Shown piece after piece: positions 2,108 to 34,469 of a stretch of 35,826 nt of DNA; position 1 is the stretch's first letter; each line of letters opens with the position of its first letter. Source of the DNA: a virus. Its lineage: Duplodnaviria > Caudoviricetes. The notes beneath the pieces were generated by a model, which worked only from the letters and a program-made list of their open reading frames with translations, did no database searches and was not told the DNA's origin. The translations under genes were made by a program, and so were the position numbers. The stretch covers positions 1-35,826 of the IMG/VR virus record IMGVR_UViG_3300012157_000005; one strand, 5' to 3'.

Positions 2108-2494
2108 TTACATCCTATTATGTTGAACTGCTTTTTGTGTATCTTGCCAAGCACGAACTCCAGTTATCCAAAGTATTCCATCTGTATCAAATCTAACAGC
2201 ATGTAACTCAGTTGCCTCATTCTTATCAATCACAAGATATTGATTGGCCGGCACCAAGACTGCATCAGCAAGATAAGCAAGGGAAGCAGGCACAGATGCA
2301 GCAAGAATTCCTAATCTGACAATACAATCTTGAGTTGCATATAAAACAAGAATTTCAATATCTGTAGAAAGAGCAATTTCTTGGTCAGCAGAAGTAAAAT
2401 TAATTCGCCCAAGTCCATGAAGTCTTATAACTTCAAGAGGTATTGGTTCTCCTAATGGTGTTGTTAATGGATAAAGACGACGGGCTTCAGCCAT
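2108..2494 (-). CDS. Hypothetical virion protein
   Basis: 128 aa ORF in the packed operon. Confidence 0.7.
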   Translation of the reverse strand: MAEARRLYPLTTPLGEPIPLEVIRLHGLGRINFTSADQEIALSTDIEILVLYATQDCIVRLGILAASVPASLAYLADAVLVPANQYLVIDKNEATELHAVRFDTDGILWITGVRAWQDTQKAVQHNRM

Positions 2495-2503
2495 ATTTAA
2501 TTT

Positions 2504-2911
2504 TCATAATTTTGCATCAACTTTTACTTGATTTTGCATATGTTCTTTGTATAACTTCAATGCCTCATCAGCTGCTGCAAAATCTTCTGGCTCTTTAGTT
2601 ACTTGAGCTAACCTACGTAAGGCAATTTCAGTTAATTTTAATTGAGTACCATAGTTTCTATTGACTAAAATATGTGTACTGTCTAGAACATTACTAATAT
2701 TATTAAGTTTGTTAGAAGTAACCACATTGGATGTTATAAGTGTTGTACGAACACCTTCTACTTTTGATTCTGCAACAATGGAGCGTGCTCCTGCTGCAAC
2801 ACTTGCTTGAACAATAGCTGTTTTAGTTTTAGTTGATGTCCAAGCCTGTATTCCAGCAATTAGTACAGCTGATGCAAATATAAAAAATGCTTGCCAAAAT
2901 GGATCACTCAT
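2504..2911 (-). CDS. Putative holin or other lysis membrane protein
   Basis: N-terminal hydrophobic helix (FWQAFFIFASAVLIAGIQAW); GAGGAG SD; directly downstream of the endolysin. Confidence 0.5.
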   Translation of the reverse strand: MSDPFWQAFFIFASAVLIAGIQAWTSTKTKTAIVQASVAAGARSIVAESKVEGVRTTLITSNVVTSNKLNNISNVLDSTHILVNRNYGTQLKLTEIALRRLAQVTKEPEDFAAADEALKLYKEHMQNQVKVDAKL

Positions 2912-2926
2912 ACTCCTCTTTCATGG

Positions 2927-3316
2927 TTATTTTACTCCTTCATGTTCCAACGAGAAATGATTTCCGTCAGGTTTTGGATTTCCATTTTTATCTTTGAAAT
3001 CTCCACCCCATCTGCACAATGGATGCAAGGATTTCCATTTCTCACCTAATGGACGATAAGCTTCTGAATCTCTTTGATATATATCTTCATCAGCTTCTAG
3101 TGAAGAATCTTTGAAAAGATTAAGATCAATAGCCAACTTAATATAAAGAGAATGAAGAGTGTTAGAAATACCAATACCAGCCGCCACATTTGCATTTGCT
3201 TCCGCTTTTGATCTAACAGTTTGGCCAAATGATAACTCGTAATCGTTTTCATAAGCCCAAATAATTAATTGTCCAACAAGATGAACAAAAAGTCGTTGTT
3301 TTTCTCCAAGTGTCAT
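2927..3316 (-). CDS. Endolysin, peptidase M15 family (L-Ala-D-Glu peptidase-like)
   Basis: MTLGEKQRLF start (TAATG overlap with the upstream stop); H...AIDLN, RWGGDF and DGNHFSL motifs typical of phage M15 lysins. Confidence 0.85.
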   Translation of the reverse strand: MTLGEKQRLFVHLVGQLIIWAYENDYELSFGQTVRSKAEANANVAAGIGISNTLHSLYIKLAIDLNLFKDSSLEADEDIYQRDSEAYRPLGEKWKSLHPLCRWGGDFKDKNGNPKPDGNHFSLEHEGVK

Positions 3317-4215
3317 TAGTTCCTCCTTGCCCAAGTAAATCCAATTGTTGAAACATTATACTTATCTATAGTAGCTGTAGTTGAACGAGCAGCAATAAGT
3401 CCTGTTGTGCTTGTTCTGATATGCAAATTGCTACCACCGTCTACAGCTGCTGGAGCTGTAATAGTATACATAGGTGCTGCAGTAGTAGAAGGTGCTATAT
3501 CTGCTTGATCCGGACAATAAATATAAGCAACACAAGCACCCGCATCAGAAATTCCTATATTTAATATTGCTATTACAGAAAAGTTTAGTGGAACTTTAAC
3601 TGGATCAGTACGTTTAGCTGTTGTCAAGGTATTAATAAGATTAATGTCTAATGTTGGTGTAGTCCATAGTAATTCAATACCACCACCTTCAGTTTCATAA
3701 GTAGTAAATAAGACAATAGCAGCACCAACACGTTTAATCCAGCCAATTAATCGTCTGTAATCATAATTTGCCGGCATAGTAGGAGCTGTTGCAGATAGAG
3801 AAAAAAGAACATCAATAACACCAGTGTCTGAACGCCCAATAAGATGGATATAATAATCACTATTAGCTATTGAACCAGTATCAAGACCACCTTGATTTGT
3901 TCCAACAGCCCAAGCAGCATCAAGACGCTTTGTTATAGCTGTTGTAAGAATTAAATCAAATACATTAGTTGAGTCTTTTGCAGAACCTATTGCAATATCA
4001 ATATCATTAGTAGGATCACCTGCACTGTTTGAATATGTAAGTCCATGTATGTGTCTGGGTGGAATAAAACTACCAGAACCGGGGATAAGTTTAAATTCAG
4101 TTCCACTATCATTCTTATAATACCAAAAACCATCTTGTTTAAAATAAAGTACTACTTTACCAGAGGCAGGTGTTGAAGGAGATTCTGCTTCTTCTGTTGA
4201 ATAAATTTTACCCAT
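3316..4215 (-). CDS. Tail fibre or tail protein
   Basis: 299 aa; segments GGLDTGSIANSDYYIHLI and PTMPANYDYRRLIGW resemble phage tail fibre domains; structural context. Confidence 0.65.
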   Translation of the reverse strand: MGKIYSTEEAESPSTPASGKVVLYFKQDGFWYYKNDSGTEFKLIPGSGSFIPPRHIHGLTYSNSAGDPTNDIDIAIGSAKDSTNVFDLILTTAITKRLDAAWAVGTNQGGLDTGSIANSDYYIHLIGRSDTGVIDVLFSLSATAPTMPANYDYRRLIGWIKRVGAAIVLFTTYETEGGGIELLWTTPTLDINLINTLTTAKRTDPVKVPLNFSVIAILNIGISDAGACVAYIYCPDQADIAPSTTAAPMYTITAPAAVDGGSNLHIRTSTTGLIAARSTTATIDKYNVSTIGFTWARRN

Positions 4216-4227
4216 TCTTGATTTCCC

Positions 4228-4425
4228 TTATACTATATGTAACTGGCCGACAATATCCAAACTTCCCGTGCCATTTATAAAGAAATCTTCACCAAAAATA
4301 ATCTCATATCCATCTGCAATTGTTAAAGTCTCACCACTATCTACAGAATCTTTATTGACTTGAAAAGTATGGGCATTAGTATCTAAAATATCTTTTCTAG
4401 CATGAAAAGCAGGCCTTAAATGCAT
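4228..4425 (-). CDS. Small hypothetical virion protein
   Basis: 65 aa ORF in operon. Confidence 0.6.
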   Translation of the reverse strand: MHLRPAFHARKDILDTNAHTFQVNKDSVDSGETLTIADGYEIIFGEDFFINGTGSLDIVGQLHIV

Positions 4426-4436
4426 TATTAGTCTAC

Positions 4437-5009
4437 CTATCCTATTACCTCAACACTTGAACCCTTAAAAGCTTCCCAAAATAAAAGAGCACGAGCAAAG
4501 TAACGTGCTGATTCTGTTGTTTCACCAATATCTTCTAAAATTCGTGATCTTGCAAAGTCTTCAACAGCTGTTGCCATTTCATCAAGAATCCAATCTGTTT
4601 CACCATCAGCAGTCATAACTATATGATATTGAAAATATCCAATCTTTAAGGATGATTGCAATCTAGAAAGCTTAAATGCAATATTATTTCCTGAACGATG
4701 CCAAACATCAAGACATTCTTGTCCATTTTGAAAAACTTTCTTAGGATCACGCCAATCAAGATTTTTAAAATAGCCAGCTGGTTTAATATAATCAATTGTT
4801 TTAAATCTAACAAATGGTGATGCTGTTATATCAAAGGATTGAACGTAATCAGATCCTGAAATTGCAAAATCAAAATCAACACGATCATGTGGAAAATTTG
4901 CAGTAGCAAAGAATGCAACAGCTGCATTAACAGCAGTCCTAATATCAGAGATCTTATCAGGACGTTTTGTTTTTGATGCAACTGTTGCAATCATTGCGCC
5001 AAATGACAT
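4437..5009 (-). CDS. Putative head-tail adaptor (tail tubular protein A-like)
   Basis: 190 aa, two genes after the major capsid; size, position and helical-beta-helical layout fit podovirus adaptors. Confidence 0.5.
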   Translation of the reverse strand: MSFGAMIATVASKTKRPDKISDIRTAVNAAVAFFATANFPHDRVDFDFAISGSDYVQSFDITASPFVRFKTIDYIKPAGYFKNLDWRDPKKVFQNGQECLDVWHRSGNNIAFKLSRLQSSLKIGYFQYHIVMTADGETDWILDEMATAVEDFARSRILEDIGETTESARYFARALLFWEAFKGSSVEVIG

Positions 5010-5021
5010 AAAAATCCTAAT

Positions 5022-5456
5022 TTATGAGTTATCTAGTTTTTGTTCTTGTTGCTCCAATGTAAGATCTTTTTGATCTGGTAATGGAAGAATTTCAGGTTGT
5101 ATCATACGAGCAGCTTGATAGAAATAAGGAGATACTTCTGTAACTTTTACGTGTCCTGAAAGTTTCTTAACAAAATCTCTTCTAACTGTTTCAATCTCAA
5201 CTGGATTATTAGTAATGAAAAAATAATCTTTAAAATCTGCTTTACGACCTGGACCAACAAGAAAACGAAAAGAGGCAATTGATGAATGAAAATAGACAGT
5301 TTTATCATCAGAAGAAGCAATTCGTGAAGATTCAATAAGTTCAGCAGAAGAAGCAGAAGCCTCTGCCGGTTGCTTAGCTTTGGCTTCTGCTTCTAGCTTG
5401 GCTCTTGCTACTCTCTCAGAAAAGCTAAGAGTAGTTTTGCCATTTGATTCTGACAT
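5022..5456 (-). CDS. Hypothetical protein downstream of major capsid
   Basis: 144 aa ORF in operon. Confidence 0.7.
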   Translation of the reverse strand: MSESNGKTTLSFSERVARAKLEAEAKAKQPAEASASSAELIESSRIASSDDKTVYFHSSIASFRFLVGPGRKADFKDYFFITNNPVEIETVRRDFVKKLSGHVKVTEVSPYFYQAARMIQPEILPLPDQKDLTLEQQEQKLDNS

Positions 5457-5469
5457 TTAGATTCTCAGA

Positions 5470-6690
5470 TTAACCCGCAGCGCCGGCAGTAAGATCGTAA
5501 ATGACAAAACAGCCATTTGGATTCATGAGTTCAACAGCAAATTCAGTAGTAAGAGAACCACCGTTTGCATCAACACCGTTTGCATTGTTTTTGCCAGTTC
5601 CACCAAATTCTTCAACTTTAGTATCTCTGCCTTCCATATATGCAAGTTTAAGAGCTGGCATATCAAGACCAACTGTAAGATCATCCATTCCAGCAATACC
5701 ATTAAGAATTGGGTGCTCCATTAGAATAAGATTACCTTTATAGAATTTAAAACGTTGGAAGGAAAAGCCAAAGCCTGACTGATCTGGAAGAAGTTGAATA
5801 GTTCCATTAAGACGTGCAATTTCATTAAATACTTTCATTGCCTTAGAACCACAGAAAGCAAGTCTTGTCTTAGCATCTCCCATATTGTGTGAAAATCTCC
5901 AAGCTTCTTCTAACATATCAATGAGTTGTGTCATGTTTGTAGTTGCACCAGCAGTAAATATGTTACCAGGAGCATATTGAGTAGTTGCATCAATAATACC
6001 TTGTGTAGCATGCAAGGGTTGAGCACCGGAGGTATCCATTTTAGCTTGTCCAAATAGAATTGCTGCTTCAATATCAACACTGTGTAGAGTTGAGCAGTCA
6101 AGACGACTTTCAGAGATATTGGTAAAACCAAGTTCTATTGCAGAAGCACGAGCTGTATCAGTAAGTGCCCAAGCATCACGGAAAATCTGTGTAAAGGTTG
6201 GAATATGAATAATCGTCATACCACGAGCAGTTGGACGTGAAGAACCTTCAGCATAAGCTGACCCTACTACAACAAGAACTTGATTATCAAAGATTGCAAC
6301 AGGAGCAACACGACCAAAGGCACGAGTAACAGTAATTTGTGTGGCTGAATCAACAGTAAGAACACGAAGATTTTCTCTAGTTGTAGGATTGTAAAGAACC
6401 ATATTTGGAAGAATTCCAGCTGTTGAATCAACAACTAAAACTGTATCAACAGGAGAATAGCCAGTTGGTGAACCAGCAGCTTGATTGATTTGAACACTTC
6501 CAAAGACAAGAGTTTTTGTAAAGTAACCGTGTGTTGAACTGATAGCTTTGCTTTTGCCAGTTTGTGAGGTAAGACCAAAGATAGGAAAAGAACCATCAGG
6601 ATAAAGACGAAGCATTGTTGCAGCAAAAGAGCGTTTGTTAAGTTGAGCTGGATTTACTGTGGTATTGAAAACTGACGTATAGAACGCCAT
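5470..6690 (-). CDS. Major capsid protein (DUF5309/SU10-like, HK97 fold)
   Basis: 406 aa; TQIFRDAWALTDTARA and DIEAAILFGQ motifs resemble DUF5309-type capsids; AAGGAG SD; follows portal and scaffold. Confidence 0.85.
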   Translation of the reverse strand: MAFYTSVFNTTVNPAQLNKRSFAATMLRLYPDGSFPIFGLTSQTGKSKAISSTHGYFTKTLVFGSVQINQAAGSPTGYSPVDTVLVVDSTAGILPNMVLYNPTTRENLRVLTVDSATQITVTRAFGRVAPVAIFDNQVLVVVGSAYAEGSSRPTARGMTIIHIPTFTQIFRDAWALTDTARASAIELGFTNISESRLDCSTLHSVDIEAAILFGQAKMDTSGAQPLHATQGIIDATTQYAPGNIFTAGATTNMTQLIDMLEEAWRFSHNMGDAKTRLAFCGSKAMKVFNEIARLNGTIQLLPDQSGFGFSFQRFKFYKGNLILMEHPILNGIAGMDDLTVGLDMPALKLAYMEGRDTKVEEFGGTGKNNANGVDANGGSLTTEFAVELMNPNGCFVIYDLTAGAAG

Positions 6691-6715
6691 TTAAAACTTA
6701 CTCCTTTCCTTTAGA

Positions 6716-7534
6716 TTATGCAGCTTTTTGTTGTTGCTGTCCTTGTTGTTGTTGATCTTCTGAAGGTTGTAAGTAAGCAGACCAATCATCAATAACTACT
6801 TCATCTTTCCCACGTTTTTGTTGTTCAAGTCCAGTCAACTGCTGGAAAGCTTTGGGATTAATGGCTTTCGCCATTTCAGTGAAGTATTCCTGTGTCAGTG
6901 TTGCAACTTCATCATCTGTTGCGTCAGGAAATTTGGCAGCGATCTTCTCAGAGATCATTGACATATGTTCCCTAACAACAGGATTATCTGACACATCTGG
7001 CCCACTTACTGCTTTTGATTTTGCAAGGTAATTACGTAGTGCTGTAGGGAGACCTTGCTGCTCATGTTTAACACGTGCTTCAACAAAGTGACCAGTAAGG
7101 CCGGTCGCATGTTCTAATGCACGTGAGTAAGCTTGTCTGCCGGCAAAGTTAATTGCAGCTAGGAGAGTCTTTCCGTCAATGGCATCACCTGATTGGAGTT
7201 TCTGCACTATTTCATCAGGTAAACCTGCCGTAAAGTCCATCTTTCCTGCTGCTTCCTTTACTTTGTCAGCGGCCAATAAGAATTTAGGAGGTTCATTCTT
7301 TCTTTGAGTTTCAGCATCAGGAGGAGAAAAGAGTCCTTCATATATAGACATTGCATCATTAGATTCTTCGCTACCATCATCTTGCTGTTGTTGTTGCTGC
7401 TGTATTTTTGGTTTTCCTGTTGCTGGATCTATTTCTTGTTGACTTCCAGACTTGATAACAGGTTTTCCACCCTTTCTTTTTTGAAAACGTGCAAAAATGC
7501 TATCAAGTATTCCTTGTTGGGGTGCTTGTGGCAT
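6716..7534 (-). CDS. Putative capsid scaffolding protein
   Basis: 272 aa, helical and charged, with poly-Gln tracts; lies between portal and capsid; AAGGAG SD. Confidence 0.65.
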   Translation of the reverse strand: MPQAPQQGILDSIFARFQKRKGGKPVIKSGSQQEIDPATGKPKIQQQQQQQDDGSEESNDAMSIYEGLFSPPDAETQRKNEPPKFLLAADKVKEAAGKMDFTAGLPDEIVQKLQSGDAIDGKTLLAAINFAGRQAYSRALEHATGLTGHFVEARVKHEQQGLPTALRNYLAKSKAVSGPDVSDNPVVREHMSMISEKIAAKFPDATDDEVATLTQEYFTEMAKAINPKAFQQLTGLEQQKRGKDEVVIDDWSAYLQPSEDQQQQGQQQQKAA

Positions 7535-7829
7535 TTGCTACTCCTTGTGTGGGTTGATTCTTGTGAATTTGAAGCAATGTTTCAATAACATTGATTCCAC
7601 CTTTCACAAAAACCTGTTGCATTGCATACAATTCCTTATTTGCAAAGTACGTCTTAAGATCAATTTCTGTGTGATCCTTGTATAGATCGTTTTTAAGATG
7701 TTTTAGATATTTTATGACTGAGGGATTGGAAAGAGCCGTCGAAATAGCTGCCAAGTCTGCATTAGATAAAGGAATATCCTCAATTGAAAGAGTAATTTTG
7801 TCTAAAATCTCAACTGATGTTGGAATCAT
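7503..7829 (-). CDS. Hypothetical head assembly protein
   Basis: 108 aa; ATGA overlap with the portal stop. Confidence 0.7.
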   Translation of the reverse strand: MIPTSVEILDKITLSIEDIPLSNADLAAISTALSNPSVIKYLKHLKNDLYKDHTEIDLKTYFANKELYAMQQVFVKGGINVIETLLQIHKNQPTQGVANATSTPTRNT

Positions 7830-9748
7830 ACTGGTTGTGTTGTTCCTGATTGATTTGTTTGTTGACCTTGAGCAGATTGAACTTGTGGCATAAATTGTTC
7901 AAGTCCACGAACACCACCAACACTTAAGAGATAAAGAAACATCTTTGGAAGCATTTGGCCCATTGTTTGTTGCAAAACTTGTGAAGATGAAAGAAGTTGA
8001 ATTCCACCCATAAGAACCTCTGTTGAAGCAATCTTATCAGCAGGAAGAAGTCCATCAGCCAATTTGAAATTGTTTACAATCTTACGCATATCTTCAAGTT
8101 TCTTAGTAGTAATCTCATAAACTTCACCAGAACTCATATTTTGATAACTTCCAGATACTCCATATTGATAAATATTTAGCTTAATTTGTTCTTTGATTGG
8201 TAACATTTGCTGATATTCAAGCATAAGAGCACAATTTCTCATACGACCATAAGAGCCAGCCATTGTATCATCCCATTCTTGTCTTGATTTATTACCTTTT
8301 TGAAATTGACCACGTTGAGGTTTATTTACACCATTTAGATCATCAGCCATTTCAGACATTGCACGCATATCTTGAACAACTGTCTCAGTTCCCCTTGAAT
8401 CAAATGGAATTGATTTATAAAGATCATCAATCTTCTTACCACCAAGCAGAGCATTAGCCTTATAGGGAATTTTGGCCGCTGGATAGGGGGAATTAACATC
8501 ATTGGGATTTAATGCAGTAGAGTCATATATAGCACGGTCAACGACGGCTCTACGAGCTGCATTTAAACGAATTGAAAAAAGCTTTGAATTTGCTTCTTGG
8601 AATGGAATTGCATTTTCAGCAGTTGTCATTGTTTGATATGAGAAGCCATCTTCCAAAGGTTGCCCAATGAAAACAGGAAGCATATCGTAAATCGTGAAAA
8701 TCCTTTTTGCATACACAAGTTTTTCATGATTTACGAAACAAAGTTTCCAAACTTGAGGAGTTCCTTTTTTAGGAACATTTACCATTTTATGTTCTTCTGG
8801 AATAATACGAGCATAAAGAGTTACATACTCATAAACATCAGACATACGAGATGCACGATCAATACCACTTTTTTGTTTTTGTTCAGTAAGATATGCCATC
8901 CAATCCATCATTTGACCATTGCGTAGAGCTTTGTTATTTATAAGCTTTGATATCTGTGGCTTTTCTGTATAGTAACCAAAAATATCAGTAGTAGGAGTAG
9001 ATGTAGCACTAAGCTGTGATCCCATTGCTTGTGATGTATGATATCCATTACCAGAAGATTCATGATAAGCAAGTTTACGTTTTAATTCGATACGGGAGAT
9101 AATTTCTATATGGCCAGTATACTCACCACAGTAAGGAATATCAACAGGATTAACTCGACCATCTATAATAGTATTATAAGGATCCCATGCACGTAATTTA
9201 TTAATATTGTATTGAGTTGTTTCAACTTTATTCTTTGTTGGTTCAAGATAATTTGATGTAAAGTTATAAAGATCAAGAGATGACCAGTCTACTTCAATTG
9301 CTGAAAAATTATATTTGACTGCATCCTTAAAAGATAAAGCAAGTTGACGCTGATAGCGACCACGTGTTGCATGGTCATCAATAATTGCTTGGAGTTGTTC
9401 ACCTTCTAATATTGTATTGGGTGTAGAAATTACAGGAAATATTGGATAACCTGATAGATAAATATCATTAAGGTAGGAGACATAAGAATCAACTTGTGAA
9501 ACAACAATTGGAACAGTTATTTCATCAATATTGATACCACAGGCAACTTGACCAGCAGAAGAATCATCAACACCATCTGTTCCTGTTTCTTGTGCTGCTT
9601 TGTAGCGAGCATACGCAATATCTATAAACTCCATCTTATCACGTAATTCTTGTTGCTTTTGATGGATATCAAGTATCACACCGCAATACTTGACTAAAGA
9701 TGCTTGCGCGTCTGCTGTAAGTCGGCCTACTTGTGGAGCTTGGGCCAT
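7826..9748 (-). CDS. Portal protein
   Basis: 640 aa directly after TerL; size, position and Q-rich C-terminus fit a podovirus portal. Confidence 0.8.
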   Translation of the reverse strand: MAQAPQVGRLTADAQASLVKYCGVILDIHQKQQELRDKMEFIDIAYARYKAAQETGTDGVDDSSAGQVACGINIDEITVPIVVSQVDSYVSYLNDIYLSGYPIFPVISTPNTILEGEQLQAIIDDHATRGRYQRQLALSFKDAVKYNFSAIEVDWSSLDLYNFTSNYLEPTKNKVETTQYNINKLRAWDPYNTIIDGRVNPVDIPYCGEYTGHIEIISRIELKRKLAYHESSGNGYHTSQAMGSQLSATSTPTTDIFGYYTEKPQISKLINNKALRNGQMMDWMAYLTEQKQKSGIDRASRMSDVYEYVTLYARIIPEEHKMVNVPKKGTPQVWKLCFVNHEKLVYAKRIFTIYDMLPVFIGQPLEDGFSYQTMTTAENAIPFQEANSKLFSIRLNAARRAVVDRAIYDSTALNPNDVNSPYPAAKIPYKANALLGGKKIDDLYKSIPFDSRGTETVVQDMRAMSEMADDLNGVNKPQRGQFQKGNKSRQEWDDTMAGSYGRMRNCALMLEYQQMLPIKEQIKLNIYQYGVSGSYQNMSSGEVYEITTKKLEDMRKIVNNFKLADGLLPADKIASTEVLMGGIQLLSSSQVLQQTMGQMLPKMFLYLLSVGGVRGLEQFMPQVQSAQGQQTNQSGTTQPV

Positions 9749-9772
9749 CTTCTCAGCCTTTTCCTTATTCTG

Positions 9773-11305: not shown

Positions 11306-11385
11306 TTAGCGAATTAAACAAAGCAGTTTTTCCATGTTGACGTGGAAAAGAAATAAAAATACGAGACAAAGCATACACAAGCTTA

Positions 11386-12214: not shown

Positions 12215-12248
12215 CTTAAGTCTTTGATTGCTTTGCCTTGTCTGATTC

Positions 12249-23972: not shown

Positions 23973-23981
23973 GGAAACAAA

Positions 23982-25177: not shown

Positions 25178-25409
25178 GGTTGAAAGAGAACATTCTTGGA
25201 AAAATCCTCCTACTGGAAAACTTCAGGGAGAAATTGAATTTGCAGATCAACAAGGTCTTGTTAAATTTAATCTTACAGAAGATGATGCTGTGGCAATTCT
25301 TAAACTCTGTGCAACACGAATTCTTGAAAGAGTAAGAGGTGCAACAGCCTCAATGATTCAAAAAGTTGTTGATGATGCAAAACTCATTGAAAATAAGGAG
25401 GAAGATTGA
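25158..25409 (+). CDS. Hypothetical protein
   Basis: ATG 25158 (MLLKSLKVER) with AAGGAG SD. Confidence 0.6.
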   Translation: MLLKSLKVEREHSWKNPPTGKLQGEIEFADQQGLVKFNLTEDDAVAILKLCATRILERVRGATASMIQKVVDDAKLIENKEED

Positions 25410-25533
25410 CAACCGAACGTAAAGTTGTGACTGGTATTCCAGGCTAGATTCTATTAAATCTTAATAACTCTTAATGTTCTCTTACTCGCAGAGGTATCAC
25501 CCATTGTCAATTTTTCCAAAGGAACTTTCCAAA

Positions 25534-26082: not shown

Positions 26083-26114
26083 TAATAAGTATAAGATAAC
26101 GAATCAGTGAATCA

Positions 26115-26174
26115 AAGGGGCACATTGTATTATGTGTTATATTAGCAAGATATGATGTTGCCCCTTATTTTTTT
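26115..26174 (+). terminator. Long hairpin plus T-tract after the SSB gene
   Basis: AAGGGGCA-CATTGTAT...ATATGATG-T-TGCCCCTT followed by ATTTTTTT. Confidence 0.65.
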
Positions 26175-26186
26175 ACAGGAAGGCAG

Positions 26187-26636
26187 ATGAAAAGAAAAGG
26201 ACATCAACAAAGAAGAAAAGAGCTTCTCAATGATCCCACTGCAAATACAGAGTATTATACTAAAGACAAAAATGAAGGCCCACTTCATATACATGTTAGT
26301 GCACCAAATCGTCGCAAACTTCAACGTCGTGTTCCTTCTACAATTCTTCAAGAAGCTGAATCCCTTATCTATGGTGAGCGCAATAAGCATTATCGTCATC
26401 CAACAGAAAACTTTAACAACATTGCAAATCTTTGGAATGCTTATTTCAAAGCAATTCTTGCAAGGCCGGGAGTATCTGGCTCTGCTGCTGTTTTCCAAAT
26501 TAACAACATTGACATTGCCTATCTCAATATCCTTCAAAAAATTGCTCGTGGTGCAACAAATCAAGAACATATAGATAGTGTCATAGACATTGCAGGATAC
26601 GCTGGTTGTATTGAAAGAGTTCTGAAGAACAAATAG
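26187..26636 (+). CDS. DUF6378-like protein (possible nucleotide pyrophosphohydrolase)
   Basis: ILQEAESLIYGER..HYRHP.ENF..IA.LW.AY, KIAR and DS.IDIAGYA motifs. Confidence 0.75.
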   Translation: MKRKGHQQRRKELLNDPTANTEYYTKDKNEGPLHIHVSAPNRRKLQRRVPSTILQEAESLIYGERNKHYRHPTENFNNIANLWNAYFKAILARPGVSGSAAVFQINNIDIAYLNILQKIARGATNQEHIDSVIDIAGYAGCIERVLKNK

Positions 26637-26645
26637 AAAGACAAA

Positions 26646-28931
26646 ATGCAAATCCTAGTCAACTATGATCCGAAGGAAAAAGGACAGCTCCCCATAGTTG
26701 CAGGATTGCTTAAGAAATATGGAATCTCTGCAAAAGCTTCCTCAGAATCATTTGGAATCTCAGAACTTCTAAATGCAGCAAAGAAATCAAACTCTCAGGG
26801 TATCCTTCTATGCAATGAAGGAACATTAAAAAACTGTGTTCAAGTTCCAGTTAAAACGCAAGCGACTCTCTCAACTTTCCGAGGGAGTCGCTTGAATTTT
26901 TCTATTCCAGCAATTATCTGTGCTCCATTAGAACAACTACATACCTTGACGTATGGACATTTCTTACTTGAAAATGATGTTAAGAAGTTTAGGGAACTTG
27001 GCCGGCCACCAATTCAACTCAAGTTCAAGGTATGTGAGACACAAGAAGATCTATTCAAAGCGGCATTTGTCCTCTCTGAATGTCTTTTTATCTCAGGTGA
27101 CATAGAAACTGATGGTCATTCTCGCATTACTTGCATTGCATTTACAGGAGTTACAGAACAACTTACAACAATAACTTATGTAATTCCCTTTATTGATTTT
27201 GGATTAGATCATTGGCCAACACAAAGCCAATATGCAGATGCAATCCAAACAATGCAAACAATTTGTGCAAATGAAGTCCCCAAGATGTTCTACAATGGAA
27301 ACTATGACTGCCAATATCTTATCAAATATAACTCAGAACCTAATAATTGGGTTCTTGATGCAATGGGTCTTCTTCATGCACAATATGCAGAATTAGAAAA
27401 GAATTTAGCATTTGCAGCATCTCTTCATTGCTATGACTACTACTATTGGAAACTTGAAGATGCTTTAAGTAAAAAGAACAAAGAAATACGTGGATACTGG
27501 GGATACTGTGCAAAAGATTCATGGTATCCTGCTCGTATTTTTCTCAACATGATTCAGGAAGGATATCCATCTTATGCAATTGCGAATTATCAGCGCCTTT
27601 TTAAGTTATGTTATCCATGTATCTATTGTGCCTTTGAAGGTATCAAAATTGATGAAAATGAGAGGCTTAAAGCACGAAAGGAAAGCGAAGAAGAACTTAA
27701 TAAAAGATCACATACTCTCAAAACAATGGCCGCAAATCAGAACTTCAATCCAAACTCAAGTACACAAGTGGCCGTTTTTTTATACGATATTATCGGTGCA
27801 AAATCTATCCAAATTAAAAATAAGGAAACTGGTAAATATGAAATTAAGAAATCCACAGACAAGAAAATTTTACAGAACAAAATTGCACCACAACATCCAT
27901 TGCTTGCACGTATTATAGATGACATAGTTTCATATAGAGAAGAAGTAAAAGCAATTTCAACTTACTTTGACTTTTTACAATATAGGATGCCAGATGAATC
28001 AGATCGTCTCTTATATTCAATGTCTCCCTTTACAACGGATACAGGCCGGTTCTCAAGCAAGCAAAGTAACTTTCGTGAAATAAATTATGAAAAAGGTAAA
28101 GCAATTTCTTATGGTATGCAAATTCAGAATCAACCAACAGATAGTTCTACAAAATCTTTTTTAGTTGCTGATTTAAACTACGAAATGGCAGAGGCAGATA
28201 ATAACAAGTCAGAAGCAAGATGTGTTGCTTTCCTATCTGGCTGTCGAAAGATGCAAACAGCAATTGAAAATCAAGATCGTGATTTCTATAAATCTCTTGG
28301 CCCATTATTCTTTGGAATTCCTTATGAAAAAGTATCAAAGGAACTTCGTAACTCAGCTCTGAAGCATATAGTTCACCAAGCAAATTATCTTGGAGGATGG
28401 GAAGTATTTATTAATAGAATTGGAATTAAAAAAGTATATGAAATTGGAGCAATGTTAGGAAAAAACATTGTTGATGTTAAAGCTTTTGTAAATTGGCTTA
28501 TTTCTAGGTATCATGTAGGATTTCCAGAAGTACAAGAACATTGGAAAGAGATAAGAAGAGAAGTATTACGATCACATAGACTTGTTTCAGTCTTGGGCTA
28601 TACAAGACATTTCTTTGGAAACATAATAGAAGATCACGGAGTTCTTCGAGCAGCAGTTGCACATGAACCACAAAATCTAAGTGTAAGCATTTTGAATAAA
28701 GGTTTTTGGCGAATGTATCGTGATATTGTTCTTCAAGAGCATGGAGCATTTCGCTTAAAAAATCAGATTCATGATGCTATCATGTTTCAATATCTACCAG
28801 AAAGACGAGAAGAATTTAAGATTCGTGTCCTCCAATGCATGGATAATCCTGTTAACGTAAGAGGACAAGTTCTTACTATCCCTGTTGACTATAAATACGG
28901 ACAATCGTGGAAACAAATAAAAGACCAGTAG
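26646..28931 (+). CDS. polA: Family A DNA polymerase with 3'-5' exonuclease and a UDG-like N-terminal remnant
   Basis: ExoI DIET, ExoII YNGNYD, ExoIII YCAKD; TGRFSS; motif A ADNNKSEAR, motif B RNSALKHIVHQANY, motif C QIHDA. Confidence 0.9.
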   Translation: MQILVNYDPKEKGQLPIVAGLLKKYGISAKASSESFGISELLNAAKKSNSQGILLCNEGTLKNCVQVPVKTQATLSTFRGSRLNFSIPAIICAPLEQLHTLTYGHFLLENDVKKFRELGRPPIQLKFKVCETQEDLFKAAFVLSECLFISGDIETDGHSRITCIAFTGVTEQLTTITYVIPFIDFGLDHWPTQSQYADAIQTMQTICANEVPKMFYNGNYDCQYLIKYNSEPNNWVLDAMGLLHAQYAELEKNLAFAASLHCYDYYYWKLEDALSKKNKEIRGYWGYCAKDSWYPARIFLNMIQEGYPSYAIANYQRLFKLCYPCIYCAFEGIKIDENERLKARKESEEELNKRSHTLKTMAANQNFNPNSSTQVAVFLYDIIGAKSIQIKNKETGKYEIKKSTDKKILQNKIAPQHPLLARIIDDIVSYREEVKAISTYFDFLQYRMPDESDRLLYSMSPFTTDTGRFSSKQSNFREINYEKGKAISYGMQIQNQPTDSSTKSFLVADLNYEMAEADNNKSEARCVAFLSGCRKMQTAIENQDRDFYKSLGPLFFGIPYEKVSKELRNSALKHIVHQANYLGGWEVFINRIGIKKVYEIGAMLGKNIVDVKAFVNWLISRYHVGFPEVQEHWKEIRREVLRSHRLVSVLGYTRHFFGNIIEDHGVLRAAVAHEPQNLSVSILNKGFWRMYRDIVLQEHGAFRLKNQIHDAIMFQYLPERREEFKIRVLQCMDNPVNVRGQVLTIPVDYKYGQSWKQIKDQ

Positions 28932-28947
28932 AATCGACAAAGCAAAT

Positions 28948-30192
28948 ATGGCCGTCGAATTCTACAAGAAATACTTCAACTACATTGGTGAAACAGAGGC
29001 TCCTTATATATATCATCGCTGGTGTGCAATATCTATCGTGGCTGCTATTCTCGGAAGAAATGTCTTTTTTCCTTTTGGACATTCTCGTGTTTACCCTAAT
29101 ATGTATGTTATGCTGGAAGGCAATCCAGGAGCTAGAAAAGGAACAGCATTAAAACCAGCCAGAAATCTACTTAAAGGAATTGAATTTGCAAAACTTGCAC
29201 CAGATCGTCTATCAGCAGAACGATTCATTGCAGAAATGCAGCTTCTTAATCAGCCAGAATCAATTGATGGAATAGACTTTGAAAGACTTAACTTTGAAAC
29301 TCCCTCAGAAATATATGTTATGGCAGCAGAGTTCCAAGACTTCATTGGAACAGCCAACATATCATTCATTGTTCTACTTACAAACCTTTGGGACAACCTG
29401 GACGAATACAAGCACCCAAAACTCCACGGAAAATCAATATACGTCTATGCCCCAACCGTTAATCTTATTGCGGCGGCCAATCAACAATCAATAGCACAAG
29501 CACTTCCAATAGAAGCAATAGGACAAGGTGGAACATCCAGAATTGTATTTGTGCATGGTGAGCCTACTGGTAAACAGATTACATTTCCAAAGCCTGTCTC
29601 ACAACAAGCTAAATTGGAAATGGAGTCTTTATTAAAGAAAATACAAGAGGATTTACATGGCGAAATTACCATATCAAATTCTGCAAGAACTTTATTGGAT
29701 AGGGTTTATAAAGAATACTCTTACCTTGATGATTTTCGTTTTAATCATTATAACACCAGACGTTTTGACCATATCCTTAAGCTTTGCATTGTTTTTGCTG
29801 CTATGGATTATTCATTGGAAATTCGAGATTCACATGTATTACAAGCTAATACTTTATTACACGCAACGGAACAAAGAATGGGAAAAGCACTAGGACAATT
29901 TGGTAAAGGAAAACACTCAGATGTTGCAAATGCAATTATTGAATTCATTAAAATAAATCTTACAAGGAATAAAAGGCCGGCAACAGTTAGAGAAATTTGG
30001 AAACAAGTAGATACAAATCTTAATAAGTTTGAAGAATTGGCAGAGATACTTAGAAATCTTGAAGCTGCTGAAAAGATACAGATCAAAGAGATAGCAGGCC
30101 GTCGTGGATACGTTCCACTAACCAAGATAATGAATGGATGGAAGGATGATATGTTATTAAAGGACTTCCTAACACCAGAGGAAATGCCATGA
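28948..30192 (+). CDS. DUF3987/YfjI-like P-loop protein (putative replicative helicase) with possible C-terminal winged helix
   Basis: YPNMYVMLEGNPGARKGTA, AAEFQDF, LTNLWD and GGTSRIVFV motifs; directly after PolA. Confidence 0.7.
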   Translation: MAVEFYKKYFNYIGETEAPYIYHRWCAISIVAAILGRNVFFPFGHSRVYPNMYVMLEGNPGARKGTALKPARNLLKGIEFAKLAPDRLSAERFIAEMQLLNQPESIDGIDFERLNFETPSEIYVMAAEFQDFIGTANISFIVLLTNLWDNLDEYKHPKLHGKSIYVYAPTVNLIAAANQQSIAQALPIEAIGQGGTSRIVFVHGEPTGKQITFPKPVSQQAKLEMESLLKKIQEDLHGEITISNSARTLLDRVYKEYSYLDDFRFNHYNTRRFDHILKLCIVFAAMDYSLEIRDSHVLQANTLLHATEQRMGKALGQFGKGKHSDVANAIIEFIKINLTRNKRPATVREIWKQVDTNLNKFEELAEILRNLEAAEKIQIKEIAGRRGYVPLTKIMNGWKDDMLLKDFLTPEEMP

Positions 30193-30527
30193 TAGTTCTT
30201 GATTGGGGTCATCATTACGAGATAGAACAATTAGATAATCCTGATGAATCTAAACAAAAAATTGTCTTTGTTAAACGATATTGTGGTTTTGATAATCATC
30301 CTGGAACAACCAACCAAGAACTACTTAGAGTTTTAATTAGTAGAGTTCAGTTTTTAGAAAATCAATTATCTTGGATTGGAAATGAACAAATTATACATCA
30401 TTTACGAATGGCATTAGTTTTGCATGAAGCAAGAGCTTTAATACGCAAAGTAGAAAAACACCAATTAAATCCAGAAAATATTGCTATTAATAAAAAAGAT
30501 GGCCATTTTATTTTGACAAAAATATGA
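30189..30527 (+). CDS. Tad1/Acb2-like protein (candidate anti-defence nucleotide sponge)
   Basis: HHYEI...IVF...GTTNQELLRVLISRV...N..II..L..AL...R...R parallels the Tad1 pattern as recalled. Confidence 0.55.
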   Translation: MIVLDWGHHYEIEQLDNPDESKQKIVFVKRYCGFDNHPGTTNQELLRVLISRVQFLENQLSWIGNEQIIHHLRMALVLHEARALIRKVEKHQLNPENIAINKKDGHFILTKI

Positions 30528-31003
30528 ACATTCTTTCCCTACCAATCCTCAAGCTAATTGCTCGTGGCCGGCCTTGTAAACAGATTCTCTTCAACAACAC
30601 TCCCTATCTTGAACGCTTTTATCTTTTTCGTATATTTGGTTATACTTACTACTTGCATCGTATACTTTTTGCAGATGCAGATCGTGATCTTCATAATTAT
30701 CCTTGGCAATCTGCTTATTCTCTTATCCTTAATGGTTCTTACATTGAACGTCGTCTTGAATTTGGTTTTCAAAAACGCAAGATTGAATATATATCACCTG
30801 AAGTTATCAATATTATTCGTGGCTACTATTTCTACAAAAATATTGATCGTTTTAATCACTTTGGTGAGTATTCTTGGCATACAATTATGGAGATCAATGA
30901 ACCAGAAACTTGGCTTTTGTTTTGGCATTCTACCCCATTTAGAGAATGGGGCTTTTTAAGAGCAACAGGTTTTCAAAAAGCAAAGGAGAAAGTGTGGGAT
31001 TAG
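30524..31003 (+). CDS. Cupin-fold (cysteine dioxygenase/RmlC-like) protein
   Basis: PYLER, YLH...D.DRDLHNYPW, SLILNGSYIE, WHTI, TWLLF and REWGF, typical of a phage cupin family. Confidence 0.65.
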   Translation: MNILSLPILKLIARGRPCKQILFNNTPYLERFYLFRIFGYTYYLHRILFADADRDLHNYPWQSAYSLILNGSYIERRLEFGFQKRKIEYISPEVINIIRGYYFYKNIDRFNHFGEYSWHTIMEINEPETWLLFWHSTPFREWGFLRATGFQKAKEKVWD

Positions 31004-31809
31004 GTGATGAAATAATGGTAACAGCTCTTGTCAAAAAGAATAGAAGAGAAAATCCTATTCCTCACGTTATTGTTAACTCAAAAGGCTTAATGCGTTGGAG
31101 TGTTGCTTGGGAAAATAATCCATACATTTTAAACAAAAAAGAGCTACTTGGACATAGGCCAAATTTTGATAAAAACTATTATACATTATCTTCTGGAAAT
31201 GGTGGAGGCCGTCACTACATTGATTATGAAAAATCCAAACATCATCAATTCTATGTATGGAAAGAATGGGATATAGAACCTGGTGAAATTTTTCTTTCAG
31301 AAAAAGAGTACGAACTTGCAAAGAATTTTCAAAAAGGTTATGGTAATCCAATTATTCTCATTGAACCAACAATTAAAGGACATCTTCAAGAAAATAAGAA
31401 TTGGGGAAAGCATAATTGGCAACATTTAACAAAACAATTAGATAAAAATAACATACGCACAATTCAATTAAATCATTTTTATTCAAAACTAAACTTAACT
31501 AGTAATATACATACAGTTCATTCAATTCGTGAAATATTTGCTTATATCTCTGTAGCAGATATGATTATCTCACATGAAGGTGGCTTTCATCATGCTGCTG
31601 CTGCATTAGGAACTCCTGGAATTGTTATATTTGGAGGGTATATAGATCCAAAAATTACAGGATACCCAATTCATACAAATCTTACAGGCACAAAAGTATT
31701 TTGTGGCAATCTTATTCCATGTTCACATTGTCGTAAGGCAATGAATTCAATTACACCCGAGAAAGTTGTTTATGAAACCTTAAAGATTTTGGAGAAGAAA
31801 TATGGATAG
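30994..31809 (+). CDS. Glycosyltransferase, GT9 (heptosyltransferase)-like GT-B fold
   Basis: GTG 30994 with AAGGAG SD; GLGDEIM, NNPYI, EGGFHHAAAALGTPGIVIFGG and C-terminal CxxxxxCxxC..AMNSITPEKV. Confidence 0.85.
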   Translation: MGLGDEIMVTALVKKNRRENPIPHVIVNSKGLMRWSVAWENNPYILNKKELLGHRPNFDKNYYTLSSGNGGGRHYIDYEKSKHHQFYVWKEWDIEPGEIFLSEKEYELAKNFQKGYGNPIILIEPTIKGHLQENKNWGKHNWQHLTKQLDKNNIRTIQLNHFYSKLNLTSNIHTVHSIREIFAYISVADMIISHEGGFHHAAAALGTPGIVIFGGYIDPKITGYPIHTNLTGTKVFCGNLIPCSHCRKAMNSITPEKVVYETLKILEKKYG

Positions 31810-32548
31810 ACAAATTAGCCTGCTCATTCCATCAAGAGGTCGGCCAGAACGCCTCATTGAAATGATGGCATCTGCTTGGGGAACATCTGATAAAACACTT
31901 GAACCTTTACAGTTCTGTGTTGGTTTAGATGAAGATGATCCTGCATATTCTACTTATATAAAAACCTTAGAAGAAGCTGATCTTACTCTTAATATTGCGT
32001 ATCATATATCAACAAAGCAGATGTCAGCTCCTGAGCATCTTAATAGAATGGCAACAACAATTGCTTCAGGTGATCTTATGTTTGCACTAGGAGATGATGT
32101 TATCTTTAGAACAATAGGATGGAATACAGAAATCAATCTTCTTTGGGATAAAGTTCCAGATAATATCTTAGTTGCTTATTGCAATAATGGAATGAATCGT
32201 GAGAAATGTGAGCATTTTATCTTGCACAGTGATTGGATACACCTTTTAGGTAATATTTGTCCTCCTTACTTTCGTCACTTTTGTGTTGATGCTTGGGTTG
32301 AGGATATTGCAAAACGAATTAATAGACTTTCATGGCTTAAATATGTTACAGTTGAACACATGCATTTCAAATATGGTAAAGCAAAAACTGATGAAACATA
32401 TCAAGCAGTTCGTTATCCAATAGGTAATTCTTCAGTCTCACAATTTGATACTGAAATGTATAATAAAACAGACATCGAAAGAATTAAGATTGCAAATAAA
32501 TTACGAGCATACATTGAGTCAAAATCAACAACTTCAGCAAGAACCTAA
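31802..32548 (+). CDS. Glycosyltransferase, GT2-like GT-A fold
   Basis: ISLLIPSRGRP, LDEDDP, GDLMFALGDD (DxD-like) and FCVDAW motifs. Confidence 0.8.
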   Translation: MDRQISLLIPSRGRPERLIEMMASAWGTSDKTLEPLQFCVGLDEDDPAYSTYIKTLEEADLTLNIAYHISTKQMSAPEHLNRMATTIASGDLMFALGDDVIFRTIGWNTEINLLWDKVPDNILVAYCNNGMNREKCEHFILHSDWIHLLGNICPPYFRHFCVDAWVEDIAKRINRLSWLKYVTVEHMHFKYGKAKTDETYQAVRYPIGNSSVSQFDTEMYNKTDIERIKIANKLRAYIESKSTTSART

Positions 32549-33389
32549 ATTTTTACAATATTATGTCCGTGAAAAATTTGCATCAATTTCTCTTCAAATC
32601 TTCAAAGGCTTTGATATTAAGAATCATGGAGCTTGGGTTCCTGCATCAAGAGGACAAATTTACTTTGGGCAAGGATATACACATATTGTTACAGGACTTC
32701 AATATGGATCACTTAGGGTTTTTCAACAGATCTACAATATCCAACATGCAAGACGTGAACCCTATCTTTTTATTGATGCTGGCTATTTGCTTGCTAAGCC
32801 TCATCTTACAGATATTGATACTTGGCGACTTAGAATCGTTCCTAATGCTTATCAAATGAATTGGATTTCAAAGAATCAAGATGACTCGAAACTGATTGCA
32901 TTATGTGTTAAGGGACTTCAAGTATATGATGGCTGGAGAGAAACAAATTCTAAGAAATATATCTTACTTATTCCTCCATCATCTGATGCAGTCTCACAAG
33001 TTTTCGGTTTATCAAACTGGGAAACTCAAGTTCTTATAAAATTAAAAGAGCACACAAAACGAGAAATCATTATAAGAAGAAAAGGAAATGAAGTTCCTCT
33101 TATGGCTCATTTGTCTGGTGCTCATGCAGTTGTTGCTTATACTTCTAATGTTTCTACCGATGGGGCCGTCGCAGGTATTCCAGCATTTTGTTCACAATTT
33201 GCTGCGGCAGCTCCTATTTCATTGAGGCTTGAGAATTTAGATATGATTGAAAATCCGTGGAGACCATCTAGGGAAATTAGGGAAAATTGGCTTTTAAGTC
33301 TTGCAAACAATCAATTCTTGCTAAAAGAGATTGTAGAGGGAAAAGCAAGAGAGATTGTGATGAAAGAGATGTATGGAATTTACTCCTAA
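32445..33389 (+). CDS. Putative GT-B glycosyltransferase (KpsC/KpsS-like C-terminal region)
   Basis: YLFIDAGY, ILLIPPS, IIIRRK and AHAVVAYTSNVSTDGAVAGIPAF motifs; start uncertain (possibly TTG 32514). Confidence 0.65.
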   Translation: MILKCIIKQTSKELRLQINYEHTLSQNQQLQQEPKFLQYYVREKFASISLQIFKGFDIKNHGAWVPASRGQIYFGQGYTHIVTGLQYGSLRVFQQIYNIQHARREPYLFIDAGYLLAKPHLTDIDTWRLRIVPNAYQMNWISKNQDDSKLIALCVKGLQVYDGWRETNSKKYILLIPPSSDAVSQVFGLSNWETQVLIKLKEHTKREIIIRRKGNEVPLMAHLSGAHAVVAYTSNVSTDGAVAGIPAFCSQFAAAAPISLRLENLDMIENPWRPSREIRENWLLSLANNQFLLKEIVEGKAREIVMKEMYGIYS

Positions 33390-33618
33390 AGATCAACAAC
33401 TTCTTGTATACATGCAAGGTGAATTTGCTGGCAAAAAGTTCTGTGGAGGGATGGTTTTAAAGTATATTAAAGATGATAATTATAAAATTACTCAAATTGC
33501 TCCTATTTTTGATAATCACTTCTATCGAAATGTTCTAATAACAATAGAGAATATAGAAGCAAAATGCAAAAATAATAATTGGACTGTGCAGTTTACACCA
33601 ATAAGGATACCTGCATGA
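33373..33618 (+). CDS. Hypothetical protein
   Basis: 81 aa, packed in operon. Confidence 0.6.
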   Translation: MEFTPKDQQLLVYMQGEFAGKKFCGGMVLKYIKDDNYKITQIAPIFDNHFYRNVLITIENIEAKCKNNNWTVQFTPIRIPA

Positions 33619-33824
33619 ATATAAAATCAGAGTTAGGACACGTTTTGGATGCAACAATTCCTCCACAAGAACATATGTCTTCAAATAAGAATGAGTTTTA
33701 CTTTCACCATCTTATTCATAATGGACATAAACTTATCATTGTAAGAGAACAGCCAATTAAAGATGATTTCTTAAAATTAATAAGACCATATTTGCAGAAA
33801 CAATTTCCAACACGAGACTTTTGA
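33615..33824 (+). CDS. Hypothetical protein
   Basis: ATG 33615 (ATGA overlap); AAGGA SD. Confidence 0.55.
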   Translation: MNIKSELGHVLDATIPPQEHMSSNKNEFYFHHLIHNGHKLIIVREQPIKDDFLKLIRPYLQKQFPTRDF

Positions 33825-33825
33825 T

Positions 33826-34224
33826 ATGACCAAGAAAAAAGATACAGGCATTGCCAAAGTTGATGCCAAAATGTCAACAGGTGAAATTAAATCCTTTCCA
33901 ATGCAAGAAGAAATACGAGATATATTAAATAAGTTAGAAGGACGGCTCCCAGGAAATCTTGGATTTGATCCAAACAATGCAACAACAAAAGAGCTAGAAG
34001 ATAACCACTTTTCAGGCTATCGTCTTAATGTCTTTGTTAATCAAATTGAACTATGGTGCAATGGAAAGATTCTTACTACACGAAATGCCCAAGCTGCTGC
34101 TGCTAATCCTGGGATTCTTGCGGAAATGCATGAGGAAGCATTTCACACGGTGGGAAGTATTGTTGCTGTGGAACTACAAACACAGAAAGAACAACCACCT
34201 TTTGATAAGAAGGAGCTACACTAA
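33826..34224 (+). CDS. Hypothetical protein
   Basis: 132 aa. Confidence 0.7.
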   Translation: MTKKKDTGIAKVDAKMSTGEIKSFPMQEEIRDILNKLEGRLPGNLGFDPNNATTKELEDNHFSGYRLNVFVNQIELWCNGKILTTRNAQAAAANPGILAEMHEEAFHTVGSIVAVELQTQKEQPPFDKKELH

Positions 34225-34469
34225 TGGGCCTAGAACTTCTTAACCAAACAATGGATCAGGCCGGCACAGGACTCTCAGCAGAAGAAGTTGCTGTTTTGGC
34301 CGGCCAAATCCAAGACTTAAAAACCTTACTTGATAATCCACCAAATGGAATGTCTAACTGGGATTATGAGTTTATTGAATCTGTTTCAATCGCATATGAA
34401 GAACTTAAAGTCTTAAGTAAGAACAGAATTGAAAACATTGAAAGACTTTATATGAGGCATTGTAGTTAG
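34224..34469 (+). CDS. Hypothetical acidic protein, last gene of the rightward arm
   Basis: 81 aa; AAGGAG SD; TAATG coupling. Confidence 0.7.
   Translation: MGLELLNQTMDQAGTGLSAEEVAVLAGQIQDLKTLLDNPPNGMSNWDYEFIESVSIAYEELKVLSKNRIENIERLYMRHCS

Follow-up and report, generated by a model that had tools for sequence, protein, structure and literature searches.

A graded, strand-biased GC-rich motif in a lineage of AT-rich PaP2-like podophages and its possible Chi-like role

Chi is active only if RecBCD comes from its 3′ side, and in lambda the active orientation of Chi follows the direction of packaging, as reported in two sources (PMC3784561; 10.1101/2021.07.08.451572). According to the same two sources, lambdoid phages with a recombinase and without a RecBCD inhibitor over-represent Chi with a median observed/expected ratio of 2.5, the ratio being 10.8 in P1-like and 2.6 in virulent T5-like phages, with P1 carrying 50 Chi sites, 31 of them on one strand, crowded towards the genome ends (PMC3784561; 10.1101/2021.07.08.451572). 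The Chi of Pseudomonas syringae Lz4W was shown biochemically with 7-mer variants proposed to be weakly active, and was reported not to be skewed in its genome (PMC5959072). Described here is a GC-rich motif with the 8-base consensus GGCCGGCG, found in excess in a 35,826-nucleotide stretch of viral DNA (Duplodnaviria; Caudoviricetes; positions 1 to 35,826 of IMG/VR record IMGVR_UViG_3300012157_000005, hereafter the window) that represents most of the genome of a PaP2/119X-like podophage with two divergent arms.

Only a handful of bacteria have a known Chi site, and codon usage confounds the over-representation of Chi in chromosomes. When an AT-rich phage assembles a GC-rich word from its rarest codons, this confound is gone and the preference at each position of the word can be read. 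The GC content of the window is 36.5%, with CpG at 0.53 of expectation, and the motif excess is real, strong and lineage-wide. Phage Chi enrichment is already known, and by analogy the motif of the window would work like signals of that kind, its membership being putative. A literature search made mostly without subscription papers found nothing on this word in phages or on word enrichment in this family.

Excess and shape of the motif

A first-pass annotation of the window had listed 18 copies of GCCGGC, four of GGCCGGCC and eight of GGCCGTC with one reverse complement, each of which was recovered at its listed position. Its composition-based expectation of about one GCCGGC agrees with the computed values of 1.3 (order 0) and 1.1 (order 2). 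The annotation had also argued that amino-acid choice alone is not the cause, in keeping with a synonymous-codon shuffle of 55 coding sequences that gave a mean of 1.3 GCCGGC and a maximum of 5 in 200 shuffles. Likewise, the excess persisted in the codon- and dinucleotide-preserving shuffle that it had proposed as a check, with 18 copies against a mean of 2.1 and a maximum of 7 in 200, while the nine copies of GGCCGTC compare with 0.9 in the codon shuffle (maximum 4) and 2.2 when junction dinucleotides were kept (maximum 6). All 18 GCCGGC lie in genes and they do fall in differing codon phases, 12 in an Ala-Gly, three in a Pro-Ala and three in an Arg frame.

Two longer genomes were compared with the window: G001, a 45.7 kb contig 99.9% identical to it, and G002, a 47.5 kb complete relative with 77.7% nucleotide identity over 34,014 aligned bases. 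GCCGGC occurs 22 times in G001 and 27 times in G002, against two copies each of a reversed control word, and Ala-Gly is encoded with both codons ending in C in 14 of 75 and 15 of 97 cases (1.2 and 2.0 expected). The avoidance of palindromes by phages, noted in the first-pass annotation, is evident in these two genomes, where 28 of the 64 palindromic hexamers fall below half of expectation and 12 are absent. These genomes spend rare codons on the motif while ridding themselves of other palindromes, and from this gain of the one and loss of the others we infer that selection on short words is effective in this lineage.

A number of artefacts were ruled out: codon or dinucleotide effects by the codon-aware shuffles, repeats by the unrelated flanks of the sites, assembly error by the near identity of G001 and the agreement of other assemblies, and a general creation of palindromes by the finding that 62 of the 64 palindromic hexamers stand at x1.3 or below. 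At least half of the sampled words were present in 18 of 24 public runs, among the runs listed, six of which may be the source, and four public runs span all 30 bins of positions 14501-34400. None of 84 differences among near-identical contigs touches a site, which is uninformative as less than one was expected to.

G001 and G002 avoid restriction-type words unusually broadly, palindromic hexamers and several non-palindromic words alike, which suggests a host group with many Type II systems and could help to identify it. Among other family members, one or both of two tetramer palindromes are almost gone from L136, L080, L074, L088, L083, L179 and L004, and this loss, which varies with the lineage, is a clear restriction-avoidance signature.

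The words GCCGGC, GGCCGGCC and GGCCGTC are all forms of one graded motif, such that the earlier proposal of a single shared motif stands while its consensus near GGCCGKC does not, the real one being longer and less symmetric. The perfect 7-mer core was found 39 times in G001 and G002 together against 1.9 expected, with single mismatches in the 7-mer enriched at positions 1 (x6.2), 6 (x5.4), 7 (x5.0), 2 (x3.2) and 4 (x2.6) and no mismatch tolerated at positions 3 (x0.4) and 5 (x1.1). Double mismatches stood at x0.25-1.25 in 20 of 21 classes, the exception (x2.7) overlapping opposite-strand sites. When five smaller lineages (21 kb) were added to G001 and G002 for 8-mer counts, the full GGCCGGCG was seen seven times against 0.19, the one-mismatch classes at positions 1, 6 and 8 reached x15-21, and a preference for G at position 8 was seen. 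At position 4, T is the sole tolerated substitution (T 16 vs 4.1; A 4 vs 3.0; G 0 vs 0.7). Bases past position 8 appear unconstrained, unlike in DNA uptake sequences of the Neisseriaceae type, which are fixed words of 10-12 bases extending past a GC-rich start.

Sites were called where at least two of positions 1, 6 and 7 are correct, a class defined after the data had been seen, giving 38 sites in the window (Table 1), 49 in G001 and 53 in G002 with mean gaps of 866, 920 and 859 bases. Coding DNA holds 47 sites in G001 and 51 in G002, against null means of 7.4-7.5 and maxima of 14-15. The spacing is not clearly regular (P for the coefficient of variation 0.025 in the window, 0.07 in G001 and 0.24 in G002), and these tests do not support regular spacing as a property of the motif. 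Because the excess is similar in sense and antisense orientation, the signal does not lie on RNA, and a transcription-linked role was rejected.

The positions of the sites turn over between relatives. Across 31 aligned positions with GCCGGC, six are common to G001 and G002, 11 are found only in G001 and 14 only in G002, many of the unshared positions differing by at least two bases between the two genomes. Retention (6/17 and 6/20, 30-35%) is near the 17-33% of other hexamers, ruling out fixed inherited sites. The number of sites is maintained and their places are not.

Six further lineage fragments, with capsids 75-91% identical where covered, carry 0.7-2.0 sites per kb, and L028, with a capsid 66% identical, carries 0.11, the strong signal being limited to one clade with capsid identity of at least 75%. 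None of 63 other family loci (what remained of 103 once near-duplicates and those lacking a complete capsid match had been dropped) comes near the excess, the highest reaching about x3 on small counts in the order-2 model. Likewise, a search of 24 distant genomes, whole or partial, with no preset word gave strongest words at only p about 1e-8, with near 1e-4 expected by chance, and from these 63 loci and 24 genomes a family-wide trait was rejected. The same 7-mer occurs in G007 seven times against 0.5, other modest GC-rich words are in excess in G020, G012 and EBPR podovirus 3, and G011, G022 and L001 also have modest GC-rich word excesses among distant family members. These words may be fainter or host-specific forms of what is seen here.

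Strand bias and a possible Chi-like reader

The motif is biased towards one chromosome strand, a feature absent from the first-pass annotation. Strands were counted by hand from the site lists, each site being oriented by its asymmetric letters in the orientation of the window, giving 23 plus, 6 minus and 9 unoriented sites in the window, 26, 11 and 12 in G001, and 33, 14 and 6 in G002. The pooled ratio for the two longer genomes is 59:25, about 70% of oriented sites lying on one strand. The two arms are biased in the same direction despite their opposite coding strands, with ratios of 17:4 and 15:4 in the early arms of G001 and G002 (pooled 32:8) and 9:7 and 18:10 in their late arms (pooled 27:17). 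In coding terms this is 32:8 against 17:27, with a chi-square of about 15 pooled, about 5.5 for G001 and 8.5 for G002 (by hand, uncorrected). At four-fold sites the two arms differ in A/T skew (p 5e-10 and 2e-9); the leading strand is not identifiable from third-position skews, which are confounded with expression.

Among the options offered by the first-pass annotation, a dispersed protein-binding signal fits these data best. By analogy with the known phage cases, the motif may be kept by selection on site number as a Chi-like site of a host RecBCD or AddAB, a reading that is preferred tentatively and held at a little below even confidence, because the word is graded, polar, prone to turnover and kept at about one per kb. 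The phage carries a site about every 0.9 kb, and a host helicase-nuclease of the RecBCD or AddAB type would treat it as Chi. Free DNA ends could arise when DNA is cut for packaging, during rolling-circle replication or where a fork breaks, and the enzyme entering there would meet a correctly oriented site within 1-2 kb, cease degrading and pass the end to recombination, such that the phage would gain protection or recombination at its free ends. The palindromic GCCGGC form is the most frequent, which would be due to its counting on either strand, and the strand bias would follow from the way in which packaging or replication runs.

In keeping with a Chi-like role, positions 2-8 of GGCCGGCG agree with letters 1-7 of the P. 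syringae Chi in six cases out of seven, the sole difference being C for T at position 4 where T is tolerated. The 8-mer that is identical to the P. syringae Chi at seven of eight letters occurs 10 times against 0.25 in G001, G002 and the five smaller lineages, and a Sak4-like protein match is present in the window. The T variant at position 4 could be simple CpG decay; counter to such decay, its opposite-strand mirror is not enriched (6 vs 5.5).

Several further points weigh against the Chi-like reading. In the published Chi tables compared, GGCCGGCG is identical to no described Chi word and no word has a palindromic core, and the computational prediction of Chi has been judged inadequate in one study (10.1101/2021.07.08.451572). 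The sites are scattered over the whole genome and sparser around the arm junction, apparently unlike the end crowding of P1. The excess of x20-37 is larger than the published phage Chi values compared, the null models of which differ. The absence of a Gam or Abc2 Pfam match from 56 open reading frames (ORFs) of the window and 26 others, which would fit a phage without a RecBCD inhibitor, is weak evidence, as many small ORFs are unannotated. The strand count is uncorrected within each arm and its strength uncertain, the late arm of G001 being just 9:7 and G001 and G002 sharing some sites. The motif excess is not seen in the Pseudomonas phages of the family, and PaP2, Tiera, Aeromonas P5 and most other members have no comparable word, so that any need for it must be lineage-specific.

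The polarity of the motif could also be explained by a phage-encoded protein that reads the word in one direction, as a cue for lagging-strand priming, helicase loading, recombination, packaging or ejection. A strand-biased word that occurs roughly once per kb fits use at the Okazaki scale, the strong signal is restricted to one clade, and the arm-differing A/T skew is compatible with one-directional replication. Homologues of the polymerase, primase, helicase and Sak4 exist, however, in relatives without the excess, the spacing is not clearly regular, and the likeness to known Chi is left unexplained. Known primase sites are words of 3-5 bases, and on this balance a phage-encoded reader is considered unlikely. 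Much the same weight is given to a polar DNA-tracking reader other than RecBCD or AddAB, either an undescribed host defence that spares word-dense DNA or a phage protein that acts in replication or packaging and responds to a graded cue of eight bases. Under such a reader the phages of the family would display lineage-specific words, for which weak candidates are those of G007, G020, G012 and EBPR podovirus 3, and, if true, such words would allow signals hidden in phage genomes to be read.

Methylation, self marking and hypermodification

One alternative is that the sites are a mutational imprint of host cytosine methylation and repair, generated by Vsr very-short-patch repair or by a methyl-C mismatch-repair ratchet as proposed for cyanobacterial HIP. 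Methyltransferases for the core exist in Proteobacteria, with ScmA/VsrA in Caulobacter (PMC12907096) and a tentatively assigned Ralstonia enzyme listed with a nicking-enzyme entry (PMC5390034), and one Oscillatoria has GCCGGC among its alternative HIPs, HIP density being about 1 per kb (PMC4390886). One 5-mer that is a T-neighbour at the first C is also low (19 vs 41), and three double-mismatch classes stand at x0.25-0.37, part of which may be explained by avoided restriction sites. The first-pass annotation had put forward a C5-methyltransferase with Vsr, for which depletion of the C-to-T neighbours is predicted, but the hexamer T-neighbours are not drained, being at or above expectation in the window (3 vs 2.3; 15 vs 7.9) and at x1.1-2.2 in G001 and G002. 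Ala-Gly with T at the inner C is even enriched (11 vs 5.0; 12 vs 7.5), while at the first C, which is where ScmA methylates, repair is non-synonymous in the dominant Ala-Gly frame and therefore cannot yield a synonymous excess. Under the HIP ratchet model the rCCGGy siblings should be enriched (PMC4390886), yet these sibling hexamers stand at x1.2-1.4 and the GG-CC tetramer outside the motif at x0.6-0.8. The preferred flank is G rather than the pyrimidine of ScmA, and a palindromic methylation target predicts no chromosome-strand bias, leaving an imprint of methylation as quite unlikely.

A phage DNA-modification system, which the first-pass annotation had also entertained, finds no counterpart among the scanned ORFs (the 56 of the window and 26 of G001 and G002), where no methyltransferase, Vsr or nicking-enzyme family was over threshold. 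The sole PHROG 'DNA methyltransferase' match falls on a glycosyltransferase-like ORF.

Selection on site number would also fit a word that attracts a density-based self mark through host DNA modification, such as Dnd phosphorothioation, more sites giving more protection. Dnd of Streptomyces lividans modifies a GG-CC core partially and with flank preferences, and DndFGH attacks unmodified DNA (PMC6435447). In the phages, the class of sites lacking G at position 1, and hence the GG-CC core, is still at x17, the preferred Streptomyces hexamer is at just x1.9 in G001 and G002, and the strand bias is not predicted, so that self marking appears improbable.

Hypermodification has the poorest prospects. 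The sites would here be anchors at which a phage glycosyltransferase cluster decorates the DNA after priming by a host methyltransferase, and genes resembling a cupin, GT9, GT2 and capsule synthesis do lie at 30524-33389 by the primase, are present in G001 and G002 and gave no tblastn match in the 63 outgroup loci. Most of those loci, however, stop short of the region, no methyltransferase, hydroxymethylase or TET/JBP-type match was found in the scanned ORFs, and restriction palindromes are still purged, which runs counter to a blanket protection of the DNA. Glycosyltransferase clusters often glycosylate virion proteins, and a role of this one in anchoring at the sites is thought highly improbable.

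Genome context and comparison with known systems

The closest annotated relatives of the window phage are EBPR podovirus 3, Polaromonas phage Tiera and the Pseudomonas phages PaP2, 119X and PaMx41 (Fredfastierviridae), at 35-41% identity in polymerase and portal. Public runs containing window DNA have freshwater sediment or sediment labels. A host search found no prophage or close binned copy, the two binned contigs matched both being distant (51% and 28% capsid identity), and two Atlas searches returned no host taxon. CpG is depleted family-wide (0.35-0.9 of expectation), phages of GC-rich hosts included.

The arms meet at a junction with inverted repeats of 15 nucleotides at 100% and 18 nucleotides at 94% around an AT-rich hairpin core, with mirrored sigma-70-like promoters facing the two arms; it is a candidate divergent promoter, origin or end junction. 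The endolysin and tail-associated modules are wholly different between G001 and G002 (window 845-4425 against G002 92-2309 and 42916-46822). The G001 module at 41771-44667 is without a motif site and the G002-specific modules carry sites. A PDB search with the PD-(D/E)XK exonuclease gave no meaningful match. A small ORF at 30189-30527 belongs to PHROG 2428 and is a tentative Acb2-like (anti-CBASS) candidate, with no PDB match at E up to 1. A PADLOC scan of 16 ORFs gave two weak hits, probably by chance.

Table 1. Motif sites and other features of the window, in window coordinates
Feature	Position	Strand	Remark
Palindromic core site	2246..2253	+	oriented by G at position 1
Palindromic core site	3769..3776	.	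no orienting flank
Site with position 6 varied	4245..4252	+	
Palindromic core site	5481..5488	-	oriented by G at position 8
Site with position 7 varied	7099..7106	+	
Palindromic core site	7138..7145	.	no orienting flank
Site with position 6 varied	9720..9727	-	
Palindromic core site	10827..10834	+	oriented by G at position 8
Palindromic core site	11649..11656	+	oriented by G at position 1
Site with position 6 varied	12292..12299	+	
Palindromic core site	12975..12982	.	no orienting flank
Site with position 6 varied	15206..15213	+	
Site with position 6 varied	17862..17869	+	
Palindromic core site	18159..18166	+	oriented by G at position 8
8-bp palindrome site	19643..19650	.	reads on both strands
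Palindromic core site	20322..20329	.	no orienting flank
Site with position 7 varied	20854..20861	+	
Palindromic core site	21991..21998	+	oriented by G at position 1
Palindromic core site	22651..22658	+	oriented by G at position 8
Site with position 6 varied	23372..23379	-	
Site with position 6 varied	24238..24245	+	
Site with position 6 varied	24380..24387	+	
Palindromic core site	24976..24983	.	no orienting flank
Site with position 7 varied	25646..25653	-	overlaps site 25650..25657
Site with position 7 varied	25650..25657	+	
Site with position 7 varied	26464..26471	+	
8-bp palindrome site	27000..27007	.	reads on both strands
Site with position 7 varied	28044..28051	+	
Site with position 6 varied	28950..28957	+	
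Site with position 6 varied	29471..29478	-	
Palindromic core site	29975..29982	+	oriented by G at position 1
Site with position 6 varied	30097..30104	+	
8-bp palindrome site	30566..30573	.	reads on both strands
Site with position 6 varied	31207..31214	+	
Site with position 6 varied	31838..31845	-	
Site with position 6 varied	33164..33171	+	
Palindromic core site	34259..34266	+	oriented by G at position 1
8-bp palindrome site	34298..34305	.	reads on both strands
Late arm	845..13332	-	packaging and virion genes; oriented sites 6 on +, 2 on -
M15 endolysin	2927-3334	-	late arm
Major capsid	5470-6690	-	late arm
Portal	7826-9748	-	late arm
Terminase	9773-11976	-	late arm
Arm junction	13510..13994	.	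nested inverted repeats, mirrored sigma-70-like promoters
Early/replication arm	14060..34469	+	oriented sites 17 on +, 4 on -
Dda/RecD-like helicase	16351-18462	+	early arm
PD-(D/E)XK exonuclease	21791-22756	+	early arm
Sak4-like annealing protein	24215-25177	+	early arm
DNA polymerase A	26646-28931	+	early arm
Primase-annotated protein	28948-30192	+	early arm

If the Chi-like reading is true, the motif predicts the Chi of an uncultured sediment bacterium, selection for Chi would extend to a PaP2-like podophage with a larger excess than in the published cases compared, and phage genomes would be minable for the Chi words of their hosts. If it fails, a reader must still be sought for the polar signal that at least seven phage lineages maintain.

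Within its own family the window phage shares with the Fredfastierviridae-like podophages (PaP2, 119X, PaMx41, Tiera and EBPR podovirus 3) a common gene order, homologous portal, polymerase, capsid and helicase at 35-49% identity, and low CpG, but none of these phages has a motif excess of this size, EBPR podovirus 3 having a weak related GC-rich word.

Cyanobacterial HIP1 and the alternative HIPs, including rCCGGy in Oscillatoria PCC 10802, resemble the motif in their ~1 site per kb, GC-richness, outer-position variants and use of GCCGGC (PMC4390886). They differ in being palindromes tied to a resident methyltransferase, whereas the motif is asymmetric, strand-biased, without enriched rCCGGy siblings and carried on phage DNA. 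The ScmA/VsrA target of Caulobacter and the similar Ralstonia motif have the same six-base core (PMC12907096 and PMC5390034). The ScmA target, as described there, requires pyrimidine and purine flanks and is just slightly over-represented in Caulobacter, whereas the motif prefers a G flank and T-neighbours that are not drained.

Among Chi words, that of P. syringae Lz4W has T at its position 3 where the motif has C, the motif adding an upstream G and a loose position 6. The proposed Chi-like word of Ralstonia is a different word, its core 5-mer being depleted in G001 and G002, and was set aside. P1, P7 and D6 and the inhibitor-less lambdoids differ from the window phage in their word, the motif here having a palindromic core, graded mismatch tolerance and sites not crowded at known ends. 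The window phage also shows no sign of lysogeny genes, and its Chi-like role is putative. The likeness to these phages lies in a GC-rich octamer in excess beyond codon usage, placed on both strands with the majority on one, at 0.5-1 site per kb.

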